The notes below the pieces were generated by a model. It saw only the letters and a program-made list of their open reading frames with translations, had not been told where the DNA came from and searched no databases. DNA of 61,297 bases, filler included, from Stramenopiles sp. TOSAG23-3 (Eukaryota): NCBI GenBank assembly GCA_900128585.1. It is 18 parts of 18 records of this genome, joined end to end, with 100 filler letters (N's around TTAATTAATTAA, not from the genome) between each part and the next. Parts side by side here need not be neighbours in the genome. Positions count along the whole stretch, not along the records: positions 44,404 to 47,710 come from LT644301.1; 17 more parts are not named here. One strand, written 5' to 3'. Below, in pieces: positions 10,064 through 48,252 of the stretch. The translations under genes were made by a program, and so were the position numbers. Each line of letters starts with the position of its first letter. Position 1 is the first letter of the stretch.

Positions 10064-10385
10064 TTCTTCCCTTTTTGATCGATTTTATAACACAGCATCT
10101 TCTTCGCTGTGGTTCTGCTGCTTCTTCCTTCGATTTTTTTATTATTAATAATGGTCGTTCTAGTTTTNNNNNNNNNNNNNNNNNNNNNNNNNNNNNNNNN
10201 NNNNNNNNNNNTTAATTAATTAANNNNNNNNNNNNNNNNNNNNNNNNNNNNNNNNNNNNNNNNNNNNGTTCATTCTGTCCGTGGAAAAGATCGGAAGGAA
10301 AAAAATCAACGAAGAAAGGTGTGGCTTCTTTCTGCTATTACACGGCGCAAATAACTTTGTTGGTATCTCTTCCCGGAGAAGCGAT

Positions 10386-13244
10386 ATGGCCGAGATTGCG
10401 TCTGGAGCAACGGGCCCAAACGTTGATGGGGAGAAAACCGTTGGGGAAGGAGAAAATAGCGCGCTTTTTTCCATTGGCGACTTAAATGGTGCCTTGGAGT
10501 CGTTTGAAGACGGGAGTGTTGGGGATGTAGGAGGCGAGGACGCGAGCGCTGCCAGCGCCGTTACCGTACCTGCCCCGGCAGCCACCCTCCTAGAGATGGT
10601 GTACACTGACGAAGAAGTTGCGACGCTGCAAGAAATTCTGGCGAGTGGGAAGAGCAAGTTAAAGCCGCAGCAGCAGCAATCGTACTACGCGTTCCTGTTG
10701 GACATGCACACCGAAAAGAACGCGAAGGGAACCATTAAAAACAAGAGCAAGGAACTGTTTTGCCAAGCGCTCGTCAGGCTGTACCAGGCCCTCACCCCGC
10801 GCGAGAAGCTAGCACGAACGGTCGTCGAGGTCATGCACGAAACCGTGTGCCTGTTCAGCCGAAAAATAACGAAAGAATTGCGCCGAGGGCTTGAAAAATT
10901 TCAAGACGAAGAGATGGTGGCCCATATTCGGGACTGTCGGGACATGTTAAAGTCCAACATAGAGGAGATTACATGGAAGGAGGGGGAAGATGCACCGGTG
11001 GGGGTAGTCTCTAAAAACGTTTTGAAAGTGCTCAACGACAACGTCCTCCAATGCTTGCGGCCCTTCCACTCAAAGTGGCACTACAGCAGGGTCTTTGACC
11101 TCTGCATCAGCGTGCTGACAGCCGCAATGGACCACGGTTGCTCCTCGATCGAGACTGCGGAGACGCTCGTTTCCATCGTCGCCGGCGCCGACAAGTCATT
11201 TTTCTCCATAAACCAAACCTCAAAATTGCACGGGATGGTTGCGGAAATGGGGGATCTGTTCTTGGCCAGGGATTACGTCGCTTTGTCAGAGTCGTTGTAC
11301 TCGAAAAGTTCTCGGTCTCCCATAAACGCGGAACTGGTGATCAAGTGCGTCGGCAACATGAAGCAATCGTTGGCGTTCAAGAGCTCCGCCAATAGGGAAG
11401 GCTTGGGGGATGTTGAGAAACGAGAAGCTAACTTTGCAAGGCGTACCGTGGAGCAGATGGTCAGAGTAGGAGGGCTCATCCACGAACGTTTGTTGCCCCG
11501 CATCAGGGATTCGCTTTGGGACATTGAAGTCACGAAAGGCATCTTCAAGCTTGTGGAGGACATACACCTTTACTTCGCAGCCGACCACTTGGACGGGCTA
11601 AAGGACCCCAACGACGCGGAGCTGGTCAGGGTGCAAATGGACATCAAGGCCGCGCACGAAGACATGGCTGAGGCGCTGCAGGGCGAGATGAACGGCAAGG
11701 GGCACGGCGGAAACACGTTGGAGCCGGTAGCCCTCGGTGCGTGGTGTTCCAAGCTGAAAGAAACTGTCGGGGAAGATTGCTTGTTGCAGTGGACGAAGGA
11801 GCTGACGTCCATTACGGGGGGATTGATCCCGACAGTGGACGAAGAGCAGGAGAAAAAGGACCTGTTCAAAAGGTTGGAGAAGACGTTCCGCAGGAGGTGG
11901 AAGAAGTCCCAGCTGTTCATGTTTGGCAGCAGCGGGAACATGTATGGCTCGCCGTCCTCCGACATGGACTTGTGCCTGCGCTTGAACGTAGACGACCAGA
12001 GCAAAGCAGTGTATCAAATTAGATCAGCGTTGCGCGACTACGGGGTTGGCATGGAATTCGACGATATCCAGGTGATCGCCCACGCGAGGGTGCCCCTTGT
12101 TAAGTGCAAAGAGTTGGTCACCGGGATCGAGCTAGACATTTGTGTGGACAACAACCTTGCGGTCTTCAACACGCGGCTTTTAAAGTCCTACGCGAGCCTG
12201 GACGATCGGGCCCGGCATTTAGGCTTGTTTGTAAAGAAATGGGCAAGCACACGGGGGGTAAAACGTTCCGATCAAGGGACTCTGAGCAGTTACGCTTGGA
12301 TACTGTTGGCGATTTTTTGGCTTCAAATGAACGATAACATCCCATGCCTGCAAATCGAGCCGTACGTCACCAAGGACACAAAGCGAGAGGTCCACGAAGA
12401 GTACGACGTTACCTTTTGCGGCATCGATGGCAAAATGTGGCAGGCAGCAAGGGAGAAGTGCAGAAAGTCCGAGAGTGAGTCGTTGGGCGAATTGGTGTAC
12501 GGCTTCTTTTACTTCTTCAACAACGTTTTCAATTTATCACGGGCGTGCGTGTGCCCCAGAACAGGGCAGTTGGCGCCAAAGAACCGGGTCTACGCCAACG
12601 CACGAAGGTGGCGTGTTTGCATCGAAGACCCGTTCGAGCTAGAGCATGATTTAGGCACTACGGTGTCTGAAAAGGGCCAAAAGGAGATTTTGAAGGAGTT
12701 GAAACGGGCAATGGATATGCTCGAAGCCGGAAATTCTCTTAACGACATCATCGCCGCGCGAGAAGACGGGGAAGACAATTTCCTGTCGGAAAAAATTCGA
12801 AATCGTAGGAGTGCGAAAAAAGGAAAGAAACCAAGGAAAAACCGCGTCCAGGAAGAGGAGTGGTACTGCCCCCAATGCAACACGTCTAACTTCTTGCGAA
12901 AGACAAAGTGTCGTAAATGCCAGGCACCCCGCCCCCAAAACGCGACGAACGGGGAGTCCCCCAAAATGGCTCCACAGCAAGGATTGCCCGCCGACGCCTT
13001 CCCTGGATTGCCGACGGGGAAGCCGAAACCTACTGCAGGTGTATGGGGCGCAAAAAAAAAACCCGGTTTCAACCCTGGGCCGGGGGGGGCTGCAAAGAAA
13101 CCCGCGGAAAGAATTAAGAGGATGCCTCTGACCCGGGGGGGTGGCCGCCCGGCACAAACGGGAAACGTCGGGGGGGGCACAAACCGTAGGAAGAAACGTC
13201 GGAACAAAAAGCCCAAAAATTCGGACACGAATGCAAAAAAATAA
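10386..13244 (+). CDS. Cid1/TUT-family terminal uridylyltransferase with a C-terminal RanBP2-type zinc finger
   Basis: FGSS..SSDMDLCL, ARVPLVK, LDICVDN, GTLSSYAW and IEDPFELEHDLG (PAP-associated domain). Finger WYCPQCNTSNFLRKTKCRKC at 12861-12920. First ATG is at 10386. Confidence 0.9.
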   Translation: MAEIASGATGPNVDGEKTVGEGENSALFSIGDLNGALESFEDGSVGDVGGEDASAASAVTVPAPAATLLEMVYTDEEVATLQEILASGKSKLKPQQQQSYYAFLLDMHTEKNAKGTIKNKSKELFCQALVRLYQALTPREKLARTVVEVMHETVCLFSRKITKELRRGLEKFQDEEMVAHIRDCRDMLKSNIEEITWKEGEDAPVGVVSKNVLKVLNDNVLQCLRPFHSKWHYSRVFDLCISVLTAAMDHGCSSIETAETLVSIVAGADKSFFSINQTSKLHGMVAEMGDLFLARDYVALSESLYSKSSRSPINAELVIKCVGNMKQSLAFKSSANREGLGDVEKREANFARRTVEQMVRVGGLIHERLLPRIRDSLWDIEVTKGIFKLVEDIHLYFAADHLDGLKDPNDAELVRVQMDIKAAHEDMAEALQGEMNGKGHGGNTLEPVALGAWCSKLKETVGEDCLLQWTKELTSITGGLIPTVDEEQEKKDLFKRLEKTFRRRWKKSQLFMFGSSGNMYGSPSSDMDLCLRLNVDDQSKAVYQIRSALRDYGVGMEFDDIQVIAHARVPLVKCKELVTGIELDICVDNNLAVFNTRLLKSYASLDDRARHLGLFVKKWASTRGVKRSDQGTLSSYAWILLAIFWLQMNDNIPCLQIEPYVTKDTKREVHEEYDVTFCGIDGKMWQAAREKCRKSESESLGELVYGFFYFFNNVFNLSRACVCPRTGQLAPKNRVYANARRWRVCIEDPFELEHDLGTTVSEKGQKEILKELKRAMDMLEAGNSLNDIIAAREDGEDNFLSEKIRNRRSAKKGKKPRKNRVQEEEWYCPQCNTSNFLRKTKCRKCQAPRPQNATNGESPKMAPQQGLPADAFPGLPTGKPKPTAGVWGAKKKPGFNPGPGGAAKKPAERIKRMPLTRGGGRPAQTGNVGGGTNRRKKRRNKKPKNSDTNAKK

Positions 13245-42565: not shown

Positions 42566-44008
42566 TTACCGCAATGCGGCCAACTTTTTCCCAAGCCGAT
42601 CTCGCACACTCAAAACGCTCTTTAACGCGTCCTCTTTATGGCTGTAGTGCGGTTCATCGTCTGCGAGTAGAAAATAAGAGTGTGGCATGTTGGACGGGGA
42701 GTCCGCATACTTTGACTCAAACTCGGATCTGGCCGGCTCGTCTACGTGTATTGCGAGGGCGCTGTTCCGATTTTCCCCCTTGTGCCTGTTGCTAAAGGAA
42801 GACGGTGATTCGTGTCCTTCAGTCGGCGTGCGGTTCTGCAAAGCGGGAAAACGTTTCTTTGGCGTCCTTGTTTTCTTTCCGCTGCTTTTTGGGTTCTCTT
42901 TTCCTACACGGTCGTGCTCGTCTATTTCTGCTTCAAAACCTTTTCGAATGAGCTTCTTAAACTCTATGTTGTTGTCCAGCAGGTTGGAAATTCGTTTCTG
43001 TGGAATGTTTCGCCCAGTCCTCAACCTCGTGTTCACTATCGGATAACGAAGCGGAATGTCCTCCCCAATCGTCATTCCTTTCGACCCGCCCAAACCGTCC
43101 TGGGCTTTGAACTCAATCCTGCTGAGATTCATCCACTGGCTGTCCTTATACCCAGGGGGCGGAATATCGAATTCGAATTTTATCAAGTGCTCTTTTCCGC
43201 GTTTTCTGGAGTTGATCTTTTTTCGGCCGTAATCGTATTGGACAATGGTCGCGTCGGTCCAGTTTCCCGTTTTGTACCCCAAGTTTGGAAGCTTGATTTG
43301 AATTCGGCAGCCTTCGTGCAACTCGTCCCACCATGCGATCCTTTTTCCCCTCCAGTAAACCGCGCCGCGCTTCTTCCCCTCGCTCGTTTCTTGCACCGTG
43401 CCGTACCCGTGCATTTCGCCGTGGACGAACTCGCCGGTGTAAGTTTTTCCAGTCGAGTAGTGGAACTCCCCCCACCCATGCATTTTACCGTGCAGCCATT
43501 CGCCTTTGTACTCTAAATCGTTCCCAGGCCGCCAGAATTCCCCTTCGCCGTGAGGAGTATGGTGGAAATCTCTCGGGTCCGTTTTAAAAGGGTTTGTCTC
43601 TACGCCATCCTCCAGGAAATCCCCGAAATAGTAGGAACCAGACTCGTACCATCGAGTCTTTCGCCTCCGCTCGGCCTTTTCACGGGCGGCCTCTTCGCGA
43701 ATGCGCCGCCACTCGGCCTTTTGTGCCTCCCTCTTCCTTCGTTTCTCCTCTTCGATCGCAGCTTTTTCCGCGGCCTCCCGCGCTTTTACCGCCTTTGCAA
43801 AAGCCTCCGCTTCCTGCTCCTGCTTCAGCATTCGCTTGTAATAGACTATTCCTGCCTTTTTCCATGCCGCATGCCGCTTCTCTTTTTCTACGCGCTCTTT
43901 CTCCTCCTGTATCTTGCGCGCTTCTTCCTCTTTTTTGTCCCGCTCTTCCTTTTCCCGTCGTTGGATCTCCGCCTCGAACTCCTTGATTTTGTTCAGATCG
44001 AAAGACAT
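42566..44008 (-). CDS. MORN-repeat protein with an N-terminal E/K/R helix
   Basis: YKGEWLHGKMHGWG, YTGEFVHGEMHGYG and YFGDF..PHGEG. First ATG is at 44008. Confidence 0.88.
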   Translation of the reverse strand: MSFDLNKIKEFEAEIQRREKEERDKKEEEARKIQEEKERVEKEKRHAAWKKAGIVYYKRMLKQEQEAEAFAKAVKAREAAEKAAIEEEKRRKREAQKAEWRRIREEAAREKAERRRKTRWYESGSYYFGDFLEDGVETNPFKTDPRDFHHTPHGEGEFWRPGNDLEYKGEWLHGKMHGWGEFHYSTGKTYTGEFVHGEMHGYGTVQETSEGKKRGAVYWRGKRIAWWDELHEGCRIQIKLPNLGYKTGNWTDATIVQYDYGRKKINSRKRGKEHLIKFEFDIPPPGYKDSQWMNLSRIEFKAQDGLGGSKGMTIGEDIPLRYPIVNTRLRTGRNIPQKRISNLLDNNIEFKKLIRKGFEAEIDEHDRVGKENPKSSGKKTRTPKKRFPALQNRTPTEGHESPSSFSNRHKGENRNSALAIHVDEPARSEFESKYADSPSNMPHSYFLLADDEPHYSHKEDALKSVLSVRDRLGKKLAALR

Positions 44009-44254
44009 CCTGCCCAATGTTTGATGGATGGTTTTGTTTTAACTTCTCCGTTCCATTGTGAGATAATTTATTTGGCATTTTTTGGAACACACTGTATATC
44101 TATAGAAAGGAGTTAAGAAAGGTATCATATCTATATTCATATACAAATGGGTAAAAATAATAATAATAATTCTAATTTTTTTACCAACGACTCTGCCTGA
44201 TACAAATGCTGTGTATATGTACGAGGATATTAGATTAATAAAAAAATGAAAATG

Positions 44255-44302
<48 letters not shown>

Positions 44303-44403
44303 ANNNNNNNNNNNNNNNNNNNNNNNNNNNNNNNNNNNNNNNNNNNNTTAATTAATTAANNNNNNNNNNNNNNNNNNNNNNNNNNNNNNNNNNNNNNNNN
44401 NNN

Positions 44404-45966
44404 GTGCTATCCTTTCGGGGCATCAGCATATCGGAGAAAGACAAGCCGGGCCTGTACGAAGTCAGGATCGAAAACGCGCTGGGGCAAGACGCTGCTGCGA
44501 ACAACGGGGAAGTTGAGGAAGGTGGTGCCAGCTTGTCGCAGTCCCATGCGTCGTTGTCTTCGTCGGTCCGCTTTTCCCAGGAAGAGAAAGATTTGGTGCG
44601 AGTTGAGGGCGTTATCCGCATGTTTCTGAATGCCGTAAATCGTACCAGGAAAAGAAAGCACAGCGGTTCCATTAACGATTTGAGGAGCATTTTTGACTGG
44701 ATCGATGAAGATGGTAGTGGTAGGATGACGAAGGACGCGCTTTGGCTGGCCTTTAAGGAAAAGGGCATGACGATGACAAACACACAGATTAATGACGTGG
44801 CCAACGCTCTGTCCGAGGCCTCGGAGGGGGACGACATTGAGTTTGATTGTTTTTTGAACCAGCTGAGGGAAAAGCGAAATTTCAATAAGAATCTCAAGGA
44901 ATCGCGCCGAGCGACTTCGCCCGTGTCGTCTGCAATGTCCCATATCGTTAAATCAAAAAAGAAGCAAGAGGAAGAGTGGCGGCAGAAGCGGCTTGAAGCG
45001 AGCAACAAGATTCGCTCGTCCGAGTTGGTCGAAGAGCGGCAGAAGCTAAAGGCAAAGAAGCAGCTCGAGCTTGAAACCTACATAGACAGCACCACTCATG
45101 TTGCATATACAAACGACCCTTTGAAAGCTGCGCAGTTGTACGATGCTGCCCTTGTCAGAAAGTTTGGACACATCGCGTCTATCCCATTCATGAATTTTCC
45201 TGAAAGCTGCCCAGACCTTTGGCCAGCATTCCAACGCGTCATTCTGGAGCAGCGGCAATCACCGTACCTAAAAAGAAATTTGACTGTGCCAGAGCCCGGC
45301 GAAAAGCTCGAAGATCCTGCGTCCTTCTTTGAGACGTTAAAGAAAGCCAGCGTCTCCAGGCGAAAAAAGTACGTAGAAAAATCCCAAGCGAAAATTTCAA
45401 GCTTATCCTCCCTCATTGGTCCCTCCCCGTCAAGTCCACAAGGGAAAAAGTTCGGGACCAACGCCCGCGTGAACAAAGAGCGCCCTTTGAACTTGAAACG
45501 GTACAAAAACAGTAATGGGGTGTATGTATACTACGTTCAAAAGGAAAAACGAGCAAAACATAAGAGGAAAACTCCCCAAAAGGGCCCAGCCGCGAAGAAG
45601 GATGCATCGGAGTACAATGCAGCAGAGCGGGCACACATGGACAAAGTATTGGACCTAGTGACTGATTCCATAAAAAAGAGGAGAAGCGTGTTTGGCCACA
45701 AAATGACGTCGGTATTCGATGCTTTCGCCGCTTTTGATATTAGCAATAGCGGGCGGTTGTCGCACCACCACTTTCGTTCGGCCATGGAGCGATTAGGATT
45801 GGGGGTCAGTCATAAAGTGTTGGGCGATTTGATCGATATTGTAGATGATGATGGAAATGGAACCATCGAATACGAAGAATTTGTAAATGCATTGGACAAA
45901 CGAGCCTCCAGACGGGAGCGCGAGCGCGAACTTATGCAAAAAGAGACGGGCCCAAAGTTTAATTAA
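44404..45966 (+). CDS. EF-hand protein containing a split AP2-like domain, 5'-partial
   Basis: EF loops DEDGSGRMTKDA, DISNSGRLSHHH and DDDGNGTIEYEE. AP2-like halves SFRGIS..GLYEVRI and HVAYTNDPLKAAQLYDAA..FG..MNFP. Confidence 0.8.
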   Translation: MLSFRGISISEKDKPGLYEVRIENALGQDAAANNGEVEEGGASLSQSHASLSSSVRFSQEEKDLVRVEGVIRMFLNAVNRTRKRKHSGSINDLRSIFDWIDEDGSGRMTKDALWLAFKEKGMTMTNTQINDVANALSEASEGDDIEFDCFLNQLREKRNFNKNLKESRRATSPVSSAMSHIVKSKKKQEEEWRQKRLEASNKIRSSELVEERQKLKAKKQLELETYIDSTTHVAYTNDPLKAAQLYDAALVRKFGHIASIPFMNFPESCPDLWPAFQRVILEQRQSPYLKRNLTVPEPGEKLEDPASFFETLKKASVSRRKKYVEKSQAKISSLSSLIGPSPSSPQGKKFGTNARVNKERPLNLKRYKNSNGVYVYYVQKEKRAKHKRKTPQKGPAAKKDASEYNAAERAHMDKVLDLVTDSIKKRRSVFGHKMTSVFDAFAAFDISNSGRLSHHHFRSAMERLGLGVSHKVLGDLIDIVDDDGNGTIEYEEFVNALDKRASRRERERELMQKETGPKFN

Positions 45967-46119
45967 AAGGAAAAAAGAGGGGGGTAAAGGGCGGTGGCGT
46001 AAAATTATTAATAACAATTCTATTTGCCTAACGCCATACTATAATAACGCATTACAATGCAGAAAACAATCTAGTTATAATTATAGGACTTACTGACGGC
46101 ATAATTAGGCAGAAGCGCG

Positions 46120-46520
46120 ATATTAATCCACTCATAGATGACTAATTTCTTATGTGATTTTTCAAGCAGCGGCGTAACTGTTTTAGAGGTGCTCGTTGTC
46201 TGTCTTAAAACAAACTAATTTTCAGTTTATCTAAAATTAAAAACAAAAAATTGGCTATTATTTTCTTGTTTTATTTAAGTAATTAAAATTCATCTTCCTC
46301 GTGTACCGCGAAAATTAATCTGCTCCTTTTGTCCATTCTAATCAATACACCCTTGTCACTTCGTCTGGACTATCATTCTCAGTTGTGCATTCTCAGTTGT
46401 GCTCCAGGCATGATCCGAATCGGTAGGTGGATTAGCAGTGCTTTCAAATGATCCGTAGTCAACTTCCTCGTCCGAGGTCTCACTCATAGATAACTCAAAA
46501 ACCTTGCAAGCAGCGGCGTA
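46120..46520 (-). repeat. Two fragments of repeat family 1 (46120-46207 and 46239-46520)
   Basis: The reverse complement matches 25210-25563 (GACAGACAACGAGCAC; GCCGCTGCTTG; ..SDEEVDYGS..; GTGACAAGGG; tail). Confidence 0.88.
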
Positions 46521-46530
46521 AAGGTGCAAC

Positions 46531-47710
46531 TTATTCGTCTTCTTCCGCGCTGATGACATGATTCTTTTCTGTCAGCTCGAATTTCGATTCTATGTTTGCA
46601 ATGAGTTGGAAAAATGTATCACATTTGTCATCCACATAATAATAGTCGAAATAGTGGAAGAAATAACTTGGAATCATAGAATCTGGGTCAGAAAACCTAT
46701 AATATCCACCAGGGCATCGCAATGGGCACCTGCGGAGAGCCGGGGGAATCTTGTAGGGAGACACGTTCTCTATGTTGCTGACTGCGTATCGATACTTCAA
46801 TTTAACTTCGGTGATGGTCCATCCTGGAGCGTACAACACCGGGCTTGAAAACGTTCCTACCTCGGTTCGTAGGTTATTCGGGTCGGATGACGTACAGATT
46901 ATGTTTCCAATGAGCGCCGGCGAGGGTACAATGCCCCATGCGTTCTTGCCGAGGATTAGACTGTCTTCTGAGATTGATGTCGGAAACTTCAGTTCAATTT
47001 GTTTTGGCTCTCCGCCTCTTGCTTTTCTCTCTATCTCTTCAGCCTCCCGCTCTTGCTCCTTTTCTTTGTTCAGCTGGGTTTCACTCTCAGAAGCAAGTTT
47101 TTTATCGGCATAGACAATAGCGCGTTGCAAAATCTCATCTTGCTTTTCTCCAATTTTCTCATCCACTTTTGAAGTAACCATTTCCGTTGCCTTTATTTCT
47201 GTTTTTGGTTCTGTGTGAATTTTGGGCCGAGCGCACTTTCTGAAACTGCAATGTCGAACTGAAACAAATGTCCTGCGAGCAATCTTGAGAACGAACGCAA
47301 AAAATCTACAGAGACCGGCGAAAAAAATACATACAACCGTTCCAAGTTGTACGGCCGGAATTCGAAAGTTTGACCAATCAATGGAATAGCCAACAATTAA
47401 GTCAAACATTTCTCCCCAATCAAAATAGAAACCTTCCATTGCTGCAAACAGTTTCATGAAGAAGGAAACAACGCCAATAAAAAGCAAGCCATAGAAAAAA
47501 TTTGATGAACGGGTACAGCACGTTGCTTTTGCGCACGGGTTGAACTTCCAAGGCAAAATCAAAGGCACAAGAACTATAAGAACAAAATAAGGCATGAATA
47601 CCATGGCGCAAAAAGTAAAAAAACCCGCACCGGTCGTTGTCCAAAGCCCCTGGCCCTCGTAGTCAGTGGTCATAACGTCTTCGTTACCTAGCAAATCCAT
47701 CTTTGGCTTT
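46531..47710 (-). CDS. Hypothetical membrane protein, probably 5'-partial
   Basis: Three hydrophobic segments followed by a charged coil. Frame open to the edge. Confidence 0.65.
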
Positions 47711-48252
47711 NNNNNNNNNNNNNNNNNNNNNNNNNNNNNNNNNNNNNNNNNNNNTTAATTAATTAANNNNNNNNNNNNNNNNNNNNNNNNNNNNNNNNNN
47801 NNNNNNNNNNTCTTTCTTCTTTCTTTCTTCTTCTTTCTTTCTTTCTTTCTTCAACGGCATTTTTTTTGTTTTATTTTTTTCGTATTTTTGTTCTTCTTCT
47901 TCTTTTTGTTCTTCTTCTATCTTCTCTTCTTCTTCTTCGCTTTTTTTTTATTTGTTTGTTTGTTGTCGTTGTGTAATTTTATTATAACACACAATAATAA
48001 TTGGTAAATATACTATACATACGACAAAAAAGAAACAAATGATTGAATCGATCTGAAAGTTTTCAAATGAGGAACGAAAAGAAAGCCAGAAGATATGTAT
48101 GTCCTTCTTAACGTGGGTTGATTTAGTTTACTGTGCTCTTTCTGTTGTTTTTTGTTTTTTTGTTTAGGTTAGCTTCGTACGGTACGCTACAAAGAGAGAA
48201 GGGTGAGTTGTCCGATTTCGAACACGTATCCGTCCATAGGACATACACAACC

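Follow-up and report, generated by a model that had tools for sequence, protein, structure and literature searches.

The window examined here is a stretch of 61,297 nucleotides (nt) of DNA, filler included, from Stramenopiles sp. TOSAG23-3 (assembly GCA_900128585.1), and it holds an open reading frame (ORF) at 44404-45966 on the plus strand that encodes the end of a multi-EF-hand protein. It is proposed that this protein carries two AP2-type units, the second of which is split in the loop between strands 2 and 3 by an EF-hand module, and that it acts as a Ca2+-responsive, nucleic-acid-binding regulator; the probability of this reading is put at about one half. The first AP2-like unit is contiguous and lies outside the window, and the second is the unit found in the window. 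This second unit appears to be divided between strands 2 and 3 by approximately 190-205 residues, comprising a spacer, a helix, an EF-hand pair and charged helices, into an N-half (candidate strands 1 and 2) and a C-half (strand 3 plus helix), which are predicted to reassemble into a three-stranded sheet packed with the helix. We infer that the AP2-like units bind nucleic acid and that Ca2+ at the EF pairs alters this binding, with the inserted pair possibly serving as a hinge whose conformation sets the closure of the split unit. The component parts are of known kinds; the combination of AP2 with EF-hands and the splitting of an AP2-type unit by an EF pair are new, and full-text literature searches, judged from the search results alone, returned no paper on an AP2 plus EF-hand architecture.

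The architecture is conserved among relatives down to approximately 27-30% identity. A word-indexed search found one real relative, and an exhaustive search of 1.84 billion representatives gave 43 matches at E<=1e-3, about 9 of which reach beyond the EF-hands. Full-length proteins were added through cluster look-ups and one further search. Five full-length relatives (P0072, P0073, P0068, P0009 and P0074), 27-52% identical to the window protein, follow a common plan. It begins with an EF pair, the contiguous AP2-like unit, a helix with an EF pair, a long linker and a strongly conserved region. It continues with the N-half, the spacer, a helix with an EF pair, the charged helices and the C-half with a conserved extension, and the protein ends with a third hairpin with a basic stretch, followed by a helix and a last EF pair. 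In total, the protein has four EF-hand pairs and two AP2-like units. Relatives with the same split that keep both blocks, for which the sequence-only reading of this DNA had proposed a search, do exist: both halves are present in all six relatives spanning the split, where the distance from (Y/F)RG to YD is 233-246 residues; the same distance is 49-50 residues in the contiguous units of the five full-length proteins.

Conservation is strong in both halves. All 7 of 7 relatives have FRG and LYEVR unchanged, and the Arg of (Y/F)RG and the Trp/Tyr on strand 2 are likewise invariant. The majority fraction peaks in the N-half (0.77) and the C-half (0.71), against 0.54-0.61 in the EF pairs and 0.39-0.49 in the spacers. 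A further strongly conserved stretch (majority fraction 0.75) immediately precedes the N-half in every full-length relative. In P0072 it covers approximately residues 585-634, outside the window. This stretch matches no Pfam family at E<=10 and may fold together with the N-half as one unit.

The window holds a truncated gene, and the view of the ORF as a whole protein had to be given up: the ORF covers only a fragment of the real protein, which bears another AP2-like unit without interruption. All 520 residues of the ORF are identical to residues 644-1163 of P0072, a metagenome protein of 1163 amino acids that lies on a 16.4-kb metagenome contig and was recovered by a search with residues 540-960 of a relative. 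A member of the 90% cluster of P0072 has 1149 residues, a size that fits a start at the first Met. The ORF is thus the 3' 45% of the gene, i.e., the last 520 of 1163 (or 1149) residues, and tblastn located none of the remaining 643 residues of P0072 in the window. The reading frame is open up to the first base of the contig after the linker; therefore, the 'GTG start' is no true start, and the ORF lacks a start because the contig end cuts the gene. The N-half sits at the extreme edge of this contig. A 4276-nt contig from another public run covers the entire stretch and extends 2555 nt further upstream; no joints and hence no intron were seen in 44404-46100. Near-identical copies of the contig occur in marine metagenomes from 16 studies. 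The protein occurs in marine picoeukaryotes, and the data point to a marine eukaryote with compact genes. The features of the ORF and its boundary are as follows.

44304-44403, no strand: assembly linker (N run, TTAATTAATTAA, N run), the boundary of two unrelated contigs, where the 5' part of the gene is cut away
44404-45966, plus strand: partial coding sequence, the last 520 codons and stop of a gene of about 1150 codons, without visible intron
44413-44472, plus strand: N-half, a beta-hairpin with FRG...LYEVR, residues 4-23, candidate strands 1-2 of the AP2-like unit; strands in both structure models
44473-44577, plus strand: spacer, predicted disordered and poorly conserved; predicted local distance difference test (pLDDT) below 50 at about residues 27-57, majority fraction 0.43
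44578-44844, plus strand: inserted module, a helix and then an EF-hand pair, residues 59-147; pair degenerate in this organism
44845-45090, plus strand: charged helices leading back to the C-half, residues 148-229; long helices in the models, majority fraction 0.46
45091-45201, plus strand: C-half, strand 3 plus helix, closing with NFP, residues 230-266; homologous to the AP2-type C-terminal half by profile comparison
45202-45321, plus strand: conserved extension past the C-half, residues 267-306; invariant columns P, L, W, P, Q, R, majority fraction 0.66
45493-45540, plus strand: third conserved beta-hairpin (RYKN...), then a basic stretch; in 7 of 7 relatives reaching it, majority fraction 0.68
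45712-45897, plus strand: C-terminal EF-hand pair; EF-hand_7 at 53.1 bits (cut-off 30)

The pieces on which the sequence-only reading was built are all found in the translation, at the positions that it gave. The FRG...LYEVR piece occupies residues 3-22 (window 44410-44469), and the piece closing in NFP occupies residues 231-266 (45094-45201). Between them stands an EF-type helix-loop-helix pair at approximately residues 93-147, followed by the long charged helices of 148-229, and the further EF-hand pair near the C-terminus was also confirmed. The expectation that a standard domain scan would report only the EF-hands held as well, Pfam returning EF-hand families alone for the ORF.

The assignment of the contiguous unit to AP2 is carried by profile searches. 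Profile A2, built from six contiguous units, was searched against 177,635 distinct PDB sequences and gave two matches at E<=10, both of them AP2/ERF proteins. The match to WRI1 (PDB 7wq5) reached E 3.5e-5 and 27 bits over profile positions 3-67 and involved both WRI1 AP2 repeats, and the match to ERF096 (PDB 5wx9) had E 1. The Pfam AP2 model (PF00847, gathering score 33.3 bits) recorded a sub-threshold 17 bits with E 0.007 on the unit of P0073, covering profile positions 3-52 of 54. A region-restricted search produced a single candidate, P0071, with a non-significant E of 0.68 over the whole database; this protein has a Pfam-true AP2 domain and a PHD finger, and hhalign of A2 against P0071 gave 93.5%. 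In the Atlas search, the first match of the P0072 contiguous unit was an AP2 cluster (0.91, 181 shared features). Single-sequence phmmer searches of the PDB with the ORF pieces and the contiguous units found no AP2. Profile comparison identifies the contiguous unit as a divergent member of the AP2 superfamily that falls below the Pfam cut-off.

The C-half of the window's unit is, by the same kind of comparison, homologous to the C-terminal half of this contiguous AP2-type unit. A hidden Markov model of the contiguous unit detects the C-half in all 10 of the targets that contain it (12-29 bits, model positions approximately 38-79). When the C-half was aligned with the contiguous unit by hhalign, a value of 96% with E 1e-9 to 2e-9 was obtained over 45 columns, running past the closing NF into the extension; the first part of the extension (residues 267-306) likewise matches the tail of the contiguous unit. 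The sole PDB match of a C-half-only profile at E<=10 was WRI1, in the strand-3-plus-helix register, with a non-significant E of 0.76. An Atlas search with the C-half is a lead only, since the best scores of 0.84 lack a family and the AP2 cluster stands at rank 6 with 0.82.

The N-half as AP2 strands 1-2 is plausible on its alignment and its motif. In hhalign, it aligns ungapped with the contiguous unit, with FRG placed on YRG and Tyr on Trp. Within P0072, the AP2 strand 1-strand 2 signature is confined to the contiguous unit and the N-half; the 47,274 six-frame residues of the window contain it a single time, and this occurrence is the N-half itself. It was absent from 26,766 residues of 41 unrelated proteins and appeared in 2 of 20,000 shuffles of P0072; this test is post hoc, because the motif was written after both copies had been seen. 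The order of AP2 elements, i.e., (Y/F)RG, the strand-2 aromatic residue, strand 3, the helix with AA..YD and the closing NF, is present in the split unit, with the N-half part at P 0.07.

Structure models point to the same order. AlphaFold2 on the 520 residues (10 sequences) gave a pLDDT of 59.9 and a predicted template modelling score (pTM) of 0.27, with strands at 7-9, 18-23 and 230-236, a helix at 239-254 and a separate hairpin at 364-368 / 374-378. Residues 1-299 were then modelled without the third hairpin to find the partner of strand 230-236. This second model (pLDDT 64.5, pTM 0.35) has strands at 7-11, 14-23 and 230-236 and the helix at 239-254, and its only other strand elements are two 3-residue EF-loop bridges. 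Strand 230-236 and helix 239-254 persist in it at pLDDT 77-79, and across both models the range is 77-81. As the 1-299 model contains no other long strand, the 7-residue strand 3 can pair only with the N-half sheet. The resulting order of strand 1, strand 2, insert, strand 3 and helix is that of AP2, at low confidence and read from secondary-structure strings. It can be inferred, with moderate strength at best, that the two halves assemble into a three-stranded sheet with the helix. A complex prediction between the C-half (P0072 866-945) and the N-half (632-672) scored 0.03 against a mark of 0.34; the alignment was unused and the partner fold uncertain, and the score counts neither way.

The EF-hand pairs (PF13499 and related models) were compared with the canonical loop, which has 12 residues with acidic or polar residues at positions 1, 3 and 5, Gly at 6 and Glu/Asp at 12. 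Taken alone against Pfam, the inserted pair reaches 19.8 bits for EF-hand_6 (cut-off 25) and 17.8 bits for EF-hand_7 (cut-off 30). Its loop 1 has Ala at ligand position 12, and its loop 2 is one residue longer and is without ligands at positions 1 and 3. Relatives retain one or two canonical loops at this site. In the C-terminal pair, loop 1 has His at ligand position 12 and loop 2 is canonical. The inserted module is 27% identical (E 4e-9) to the helix and EF pair that follow the contiguous unit, and such a helix plus EF-pair module is repeated behind each AP2-like element. This likeness suggests that the insert probably arose from duplication of the neighboring module. The inserted pair is non-canonical and below the Pfam cut-offs, and a Ca2+ switch at the insertion site is therefore doubtful in this organism. 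It is more likely that the inserted pair serves here as a fixed structural insert and that any Ca2+ sensing is left to the other EF pairs.

Several results weigh against the proposed reading. Pfam AP2 gives nothing for 5 of the 6 contiguous units and has no match at E<=10 for the ORF, its pieces or the full-length relatives. The N-half, the C-half and the middle region match no Pfam family even at E<=10, and phmmer of the middle region against the PDB returned nothing relevant. The likeness of the N-half to the contiguous unit is non-significant, with P only about 0.07. The contact residues of classical AP2 include Arg/Trp on strand 3, and strand 3 of the split unit is without them. Neither loop of the inserted pair is canonical in this organism, and only one of the four EF loops in the ORF, the last, is fully canonical. 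The models are of low confidence, and strand pairing was deduced from secondary-structure strings instead of coordinates. With Foldseek, both models retrieved EF-hand proteins alone, calmodulin-like ones among them; the AP2-like unit cannot be aligned by Foldseek because approximately 200 residues interrupt it. Finally, the ORF is tiled (44404-45950) by just one run, whose RNA origin is a guess, and a metatranscriptome contig overlaps only 46010-46100, at 90-95% identity.

Taken together, these results divide the earlier claims. The AP2 origin of the two pieces stands for the C-half through its hhalign alignment, and it does not reach significance for the N-half, in addition to the missing Pfam match. 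A Ca2+ sensor inserted into AP2 is upheld insofar as an EF pair lies between the halves and is kept in relatives, and it is weakened by the degeneracy of both loops here. The packing of the halves is favored by the retention of strand 3 with N-half strands alone available, and is limited by the low-confidence strings of both models (pTM 0.27 and 0.35).

Three other explanations were weighed. The first takes the halves for relics that stay apart, left when an ancestral array of AP2 units, helices and EF pairs lost one C-half and the next N-half. The N-half hairpin would then be part of the conserved region upstream of it, and the C-half helix would have another job, e.g., docking of an EF pair. 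The recurrence of the helix plus EF-pair module behind each AP2-like element, the strongly conserved stretch that immediately precedes the N-half (majority fraction 0.75), the non-significant AP2 likeness of the N-half and the presence of a third, orphan hairpin all fit this history. However, it requires two complementary deletions instead of one insertion, and all 6 of the relatives spanning the split retain both halves at an almost constant distance, with conservation above that of the EF pairs. The persistence of strand 3 in the 1-299 model, with the N-half strands as its sole partners, and the restriction of the strand 1-strand 2 signature in P0072 to the contiguous unit and the N-half also speak against it, and relics without reassembly are considered unlikely. 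The resemblance could also be due to chance, as two short motifs in a low-complexity EF-hand protein. The pieces are short and Pfam AP2 does not match them, but the C-half alignment with E 2e-9, conservation among relatives at 27-50% identity, the recovery of the motif in only 2 of 20,000 shuffles and the PDB profile matches of the contiguous unit, which are AP2/ERF only, contradict chance and make it very improbable.

A different objection accepts the AP2-like fold and disputes the role. The protein may be a cytoplasmic or cytoskeletal multi-EF-hand scaffold in which the AP2-like units serve protein contacts rather than transcription. The units score below the Pfam AP2 cut-off, strand 3 is without the classical basic and aromatic residues, and the sources name the relatives only 'Ca2+-binding EF-hand superfamily protein' or 'hypothetical protein'. 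Weak Foldseek matches to axonemal EF-hand proteins (E 0.02-0.08, non-significant) point in the same direction. In contrast, the Arg of (Y/F)RG and the strand-2 Trp/Tyr are invariant, a basic stretch resembling a nuclear signal follows the third hairpin, and AP2-superfamily units are known chiefly as nucleic-acid binders. A scaffold role is accordingly held possible, though not probable, and a Ca2+-responsive, nucleic-acid-binding regulator with a split AP2-type unit is preferred.

The proposed regulator resembles several known systems in part. With AP2/ERF proteins (PF00847; WRI1, ERF096), it shares the (Y/F)RG strand, the strand-2 aromatic residue, the strand and helix with AA..YD and the closing NF. 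The relatives' contiguous unit aligns with WRI1 over the whole domain, and the C-half from the window matches its strand-3-plus-helix part in register. It differs from AP2/ERF in that the window protein is below the Pfam cut-off and strand 3 is without Arg/Trp, in that the window's unit is split by approximately 190-205 residues holding an EF-hand pair, and in that the loop between strands 2 and 3 is long (approximately 15 residues) even in the contiguous unit. An AP2 domain is one continuous domain of approximately 60 residues, from which the window's unit departs, its halves lying 233-246 residues apart. Moreover, the host protein bears four EF-hand pairs. The EF-hand protein DREAM/KChIP3 (calsenilin) binds DNA and lets go of it in the presence of Ca2+. 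As in DREAM, a single polypeptide would sense Ca2+ through EF-hands and also bind DNA; the DNA contacts of DREAM are made by the EF-hand body, with no separate DNA-binding fold, whereas here a distinct AP2-like fold would bind. Calcium-dependent protein kinases (CDPKs) of plants and protists likewise have a calmodulin-like EF-hand module fused in cis to an effector, with no separate calmodulin, and CDPK structures were among the weak Foldseek matches by virtue of their EF-hands. Here, however, the effector is an AP2-like unit and not a kinase, and the EF pair lies inside the effector fold instead of being appended to it. GCaMP-type engineered sensors offer a parallel in which an EF-hand module inside another fold could gate the integrity of that fold, and GCaMP entries match the model through calmodulin. 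Unlike the man-made GCaMP, the arrangement here is natural and conserved, and gating is hypothetical. In its strict form, the domain-insertion switch would have Ca2+ on the EF pair in the strand 2-strand 3 loop open or close the AP2-type fold and act directly on promoter occupancy within a single polypeptide. These proteins would then form a family of direct Ca2+-sensing transcription factors of abundant marine picoplankton that standard annotation does not see. This strict form is regarded as distinctly improbable.

A third hairpin lies between the C-half and the C-terminal EF pair. At 45493-45600, it is followed by a Lys/Arg-rich stretch that resembles a nuclear targeting signal and is conserved in 7 of 7 relatives. 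The hairpin showed no likeness to any family tested. As a candidate AP2 N-half it was rejected, hhalign giving E 0.83 with the contiguous unit and E 0.38 with P0071.

The surrounding sequence reflects the composition of the window, which consists of 18 unrelated contigs placed end to end and ordered by size from 3323 down to 3293 nt. The linker sequence listed above is found 17 times, each time in the middle of a 100-nt N block, where it provides stops in all six frames, at a spacing that drops from 3423 to 3395 nt. The contig carrying the ORF covers 44404-47710. Neighboring contigs break in GAAA/TCTT-type microsatellites, one ending so at 44263-44303 before the linker at 44304 and the other beginning so at 47811-47830 after the linker that ends at 47810, and these repeats at contig ends are probably the reason why the assembly breaks there. 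A second gene on the same contig, at 46531-47700 on the minus strand, is a 389-amino-acid ORF that starts 10 nt from the contig end, has a hydrophobic N-terminal part and matches no Pfam family at E<=1. The preceding, unrelated contig encodes a MORN-repeat protein with a long charged N-terminal part (42566-44017, minus strand; Pfam MORN, E 1.3e-5). Right after another linker, at 10281-13244 on the plus strand, lies an ORF of 987 amino acids with the central and associated domains of a poly(A)/terminal uridylyl transferase and a RanBP-type zinc finger. Other ORFs of the window are eukaryotic, namely CDC73, the poly(A)/terminal uridylyl transferase-like enzyme and the MORN-repeat protein.

The AP2-type units lie below the Pfam cut-off, and Pfam-based censuses of transcription factors would therefore miss proteins of this kind that are annotated only as EF-hand. 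If the proposed reading is true, Ca2+ sensing and a plant-type DNA-binding fold would be joined in one chain, in which one copy of the fold is interrupted by the sensor. Such proteins would give very common ocean microbes a compact route from Ca2+ to transcription and would be a natural counterpart to engineered insertion sensors.

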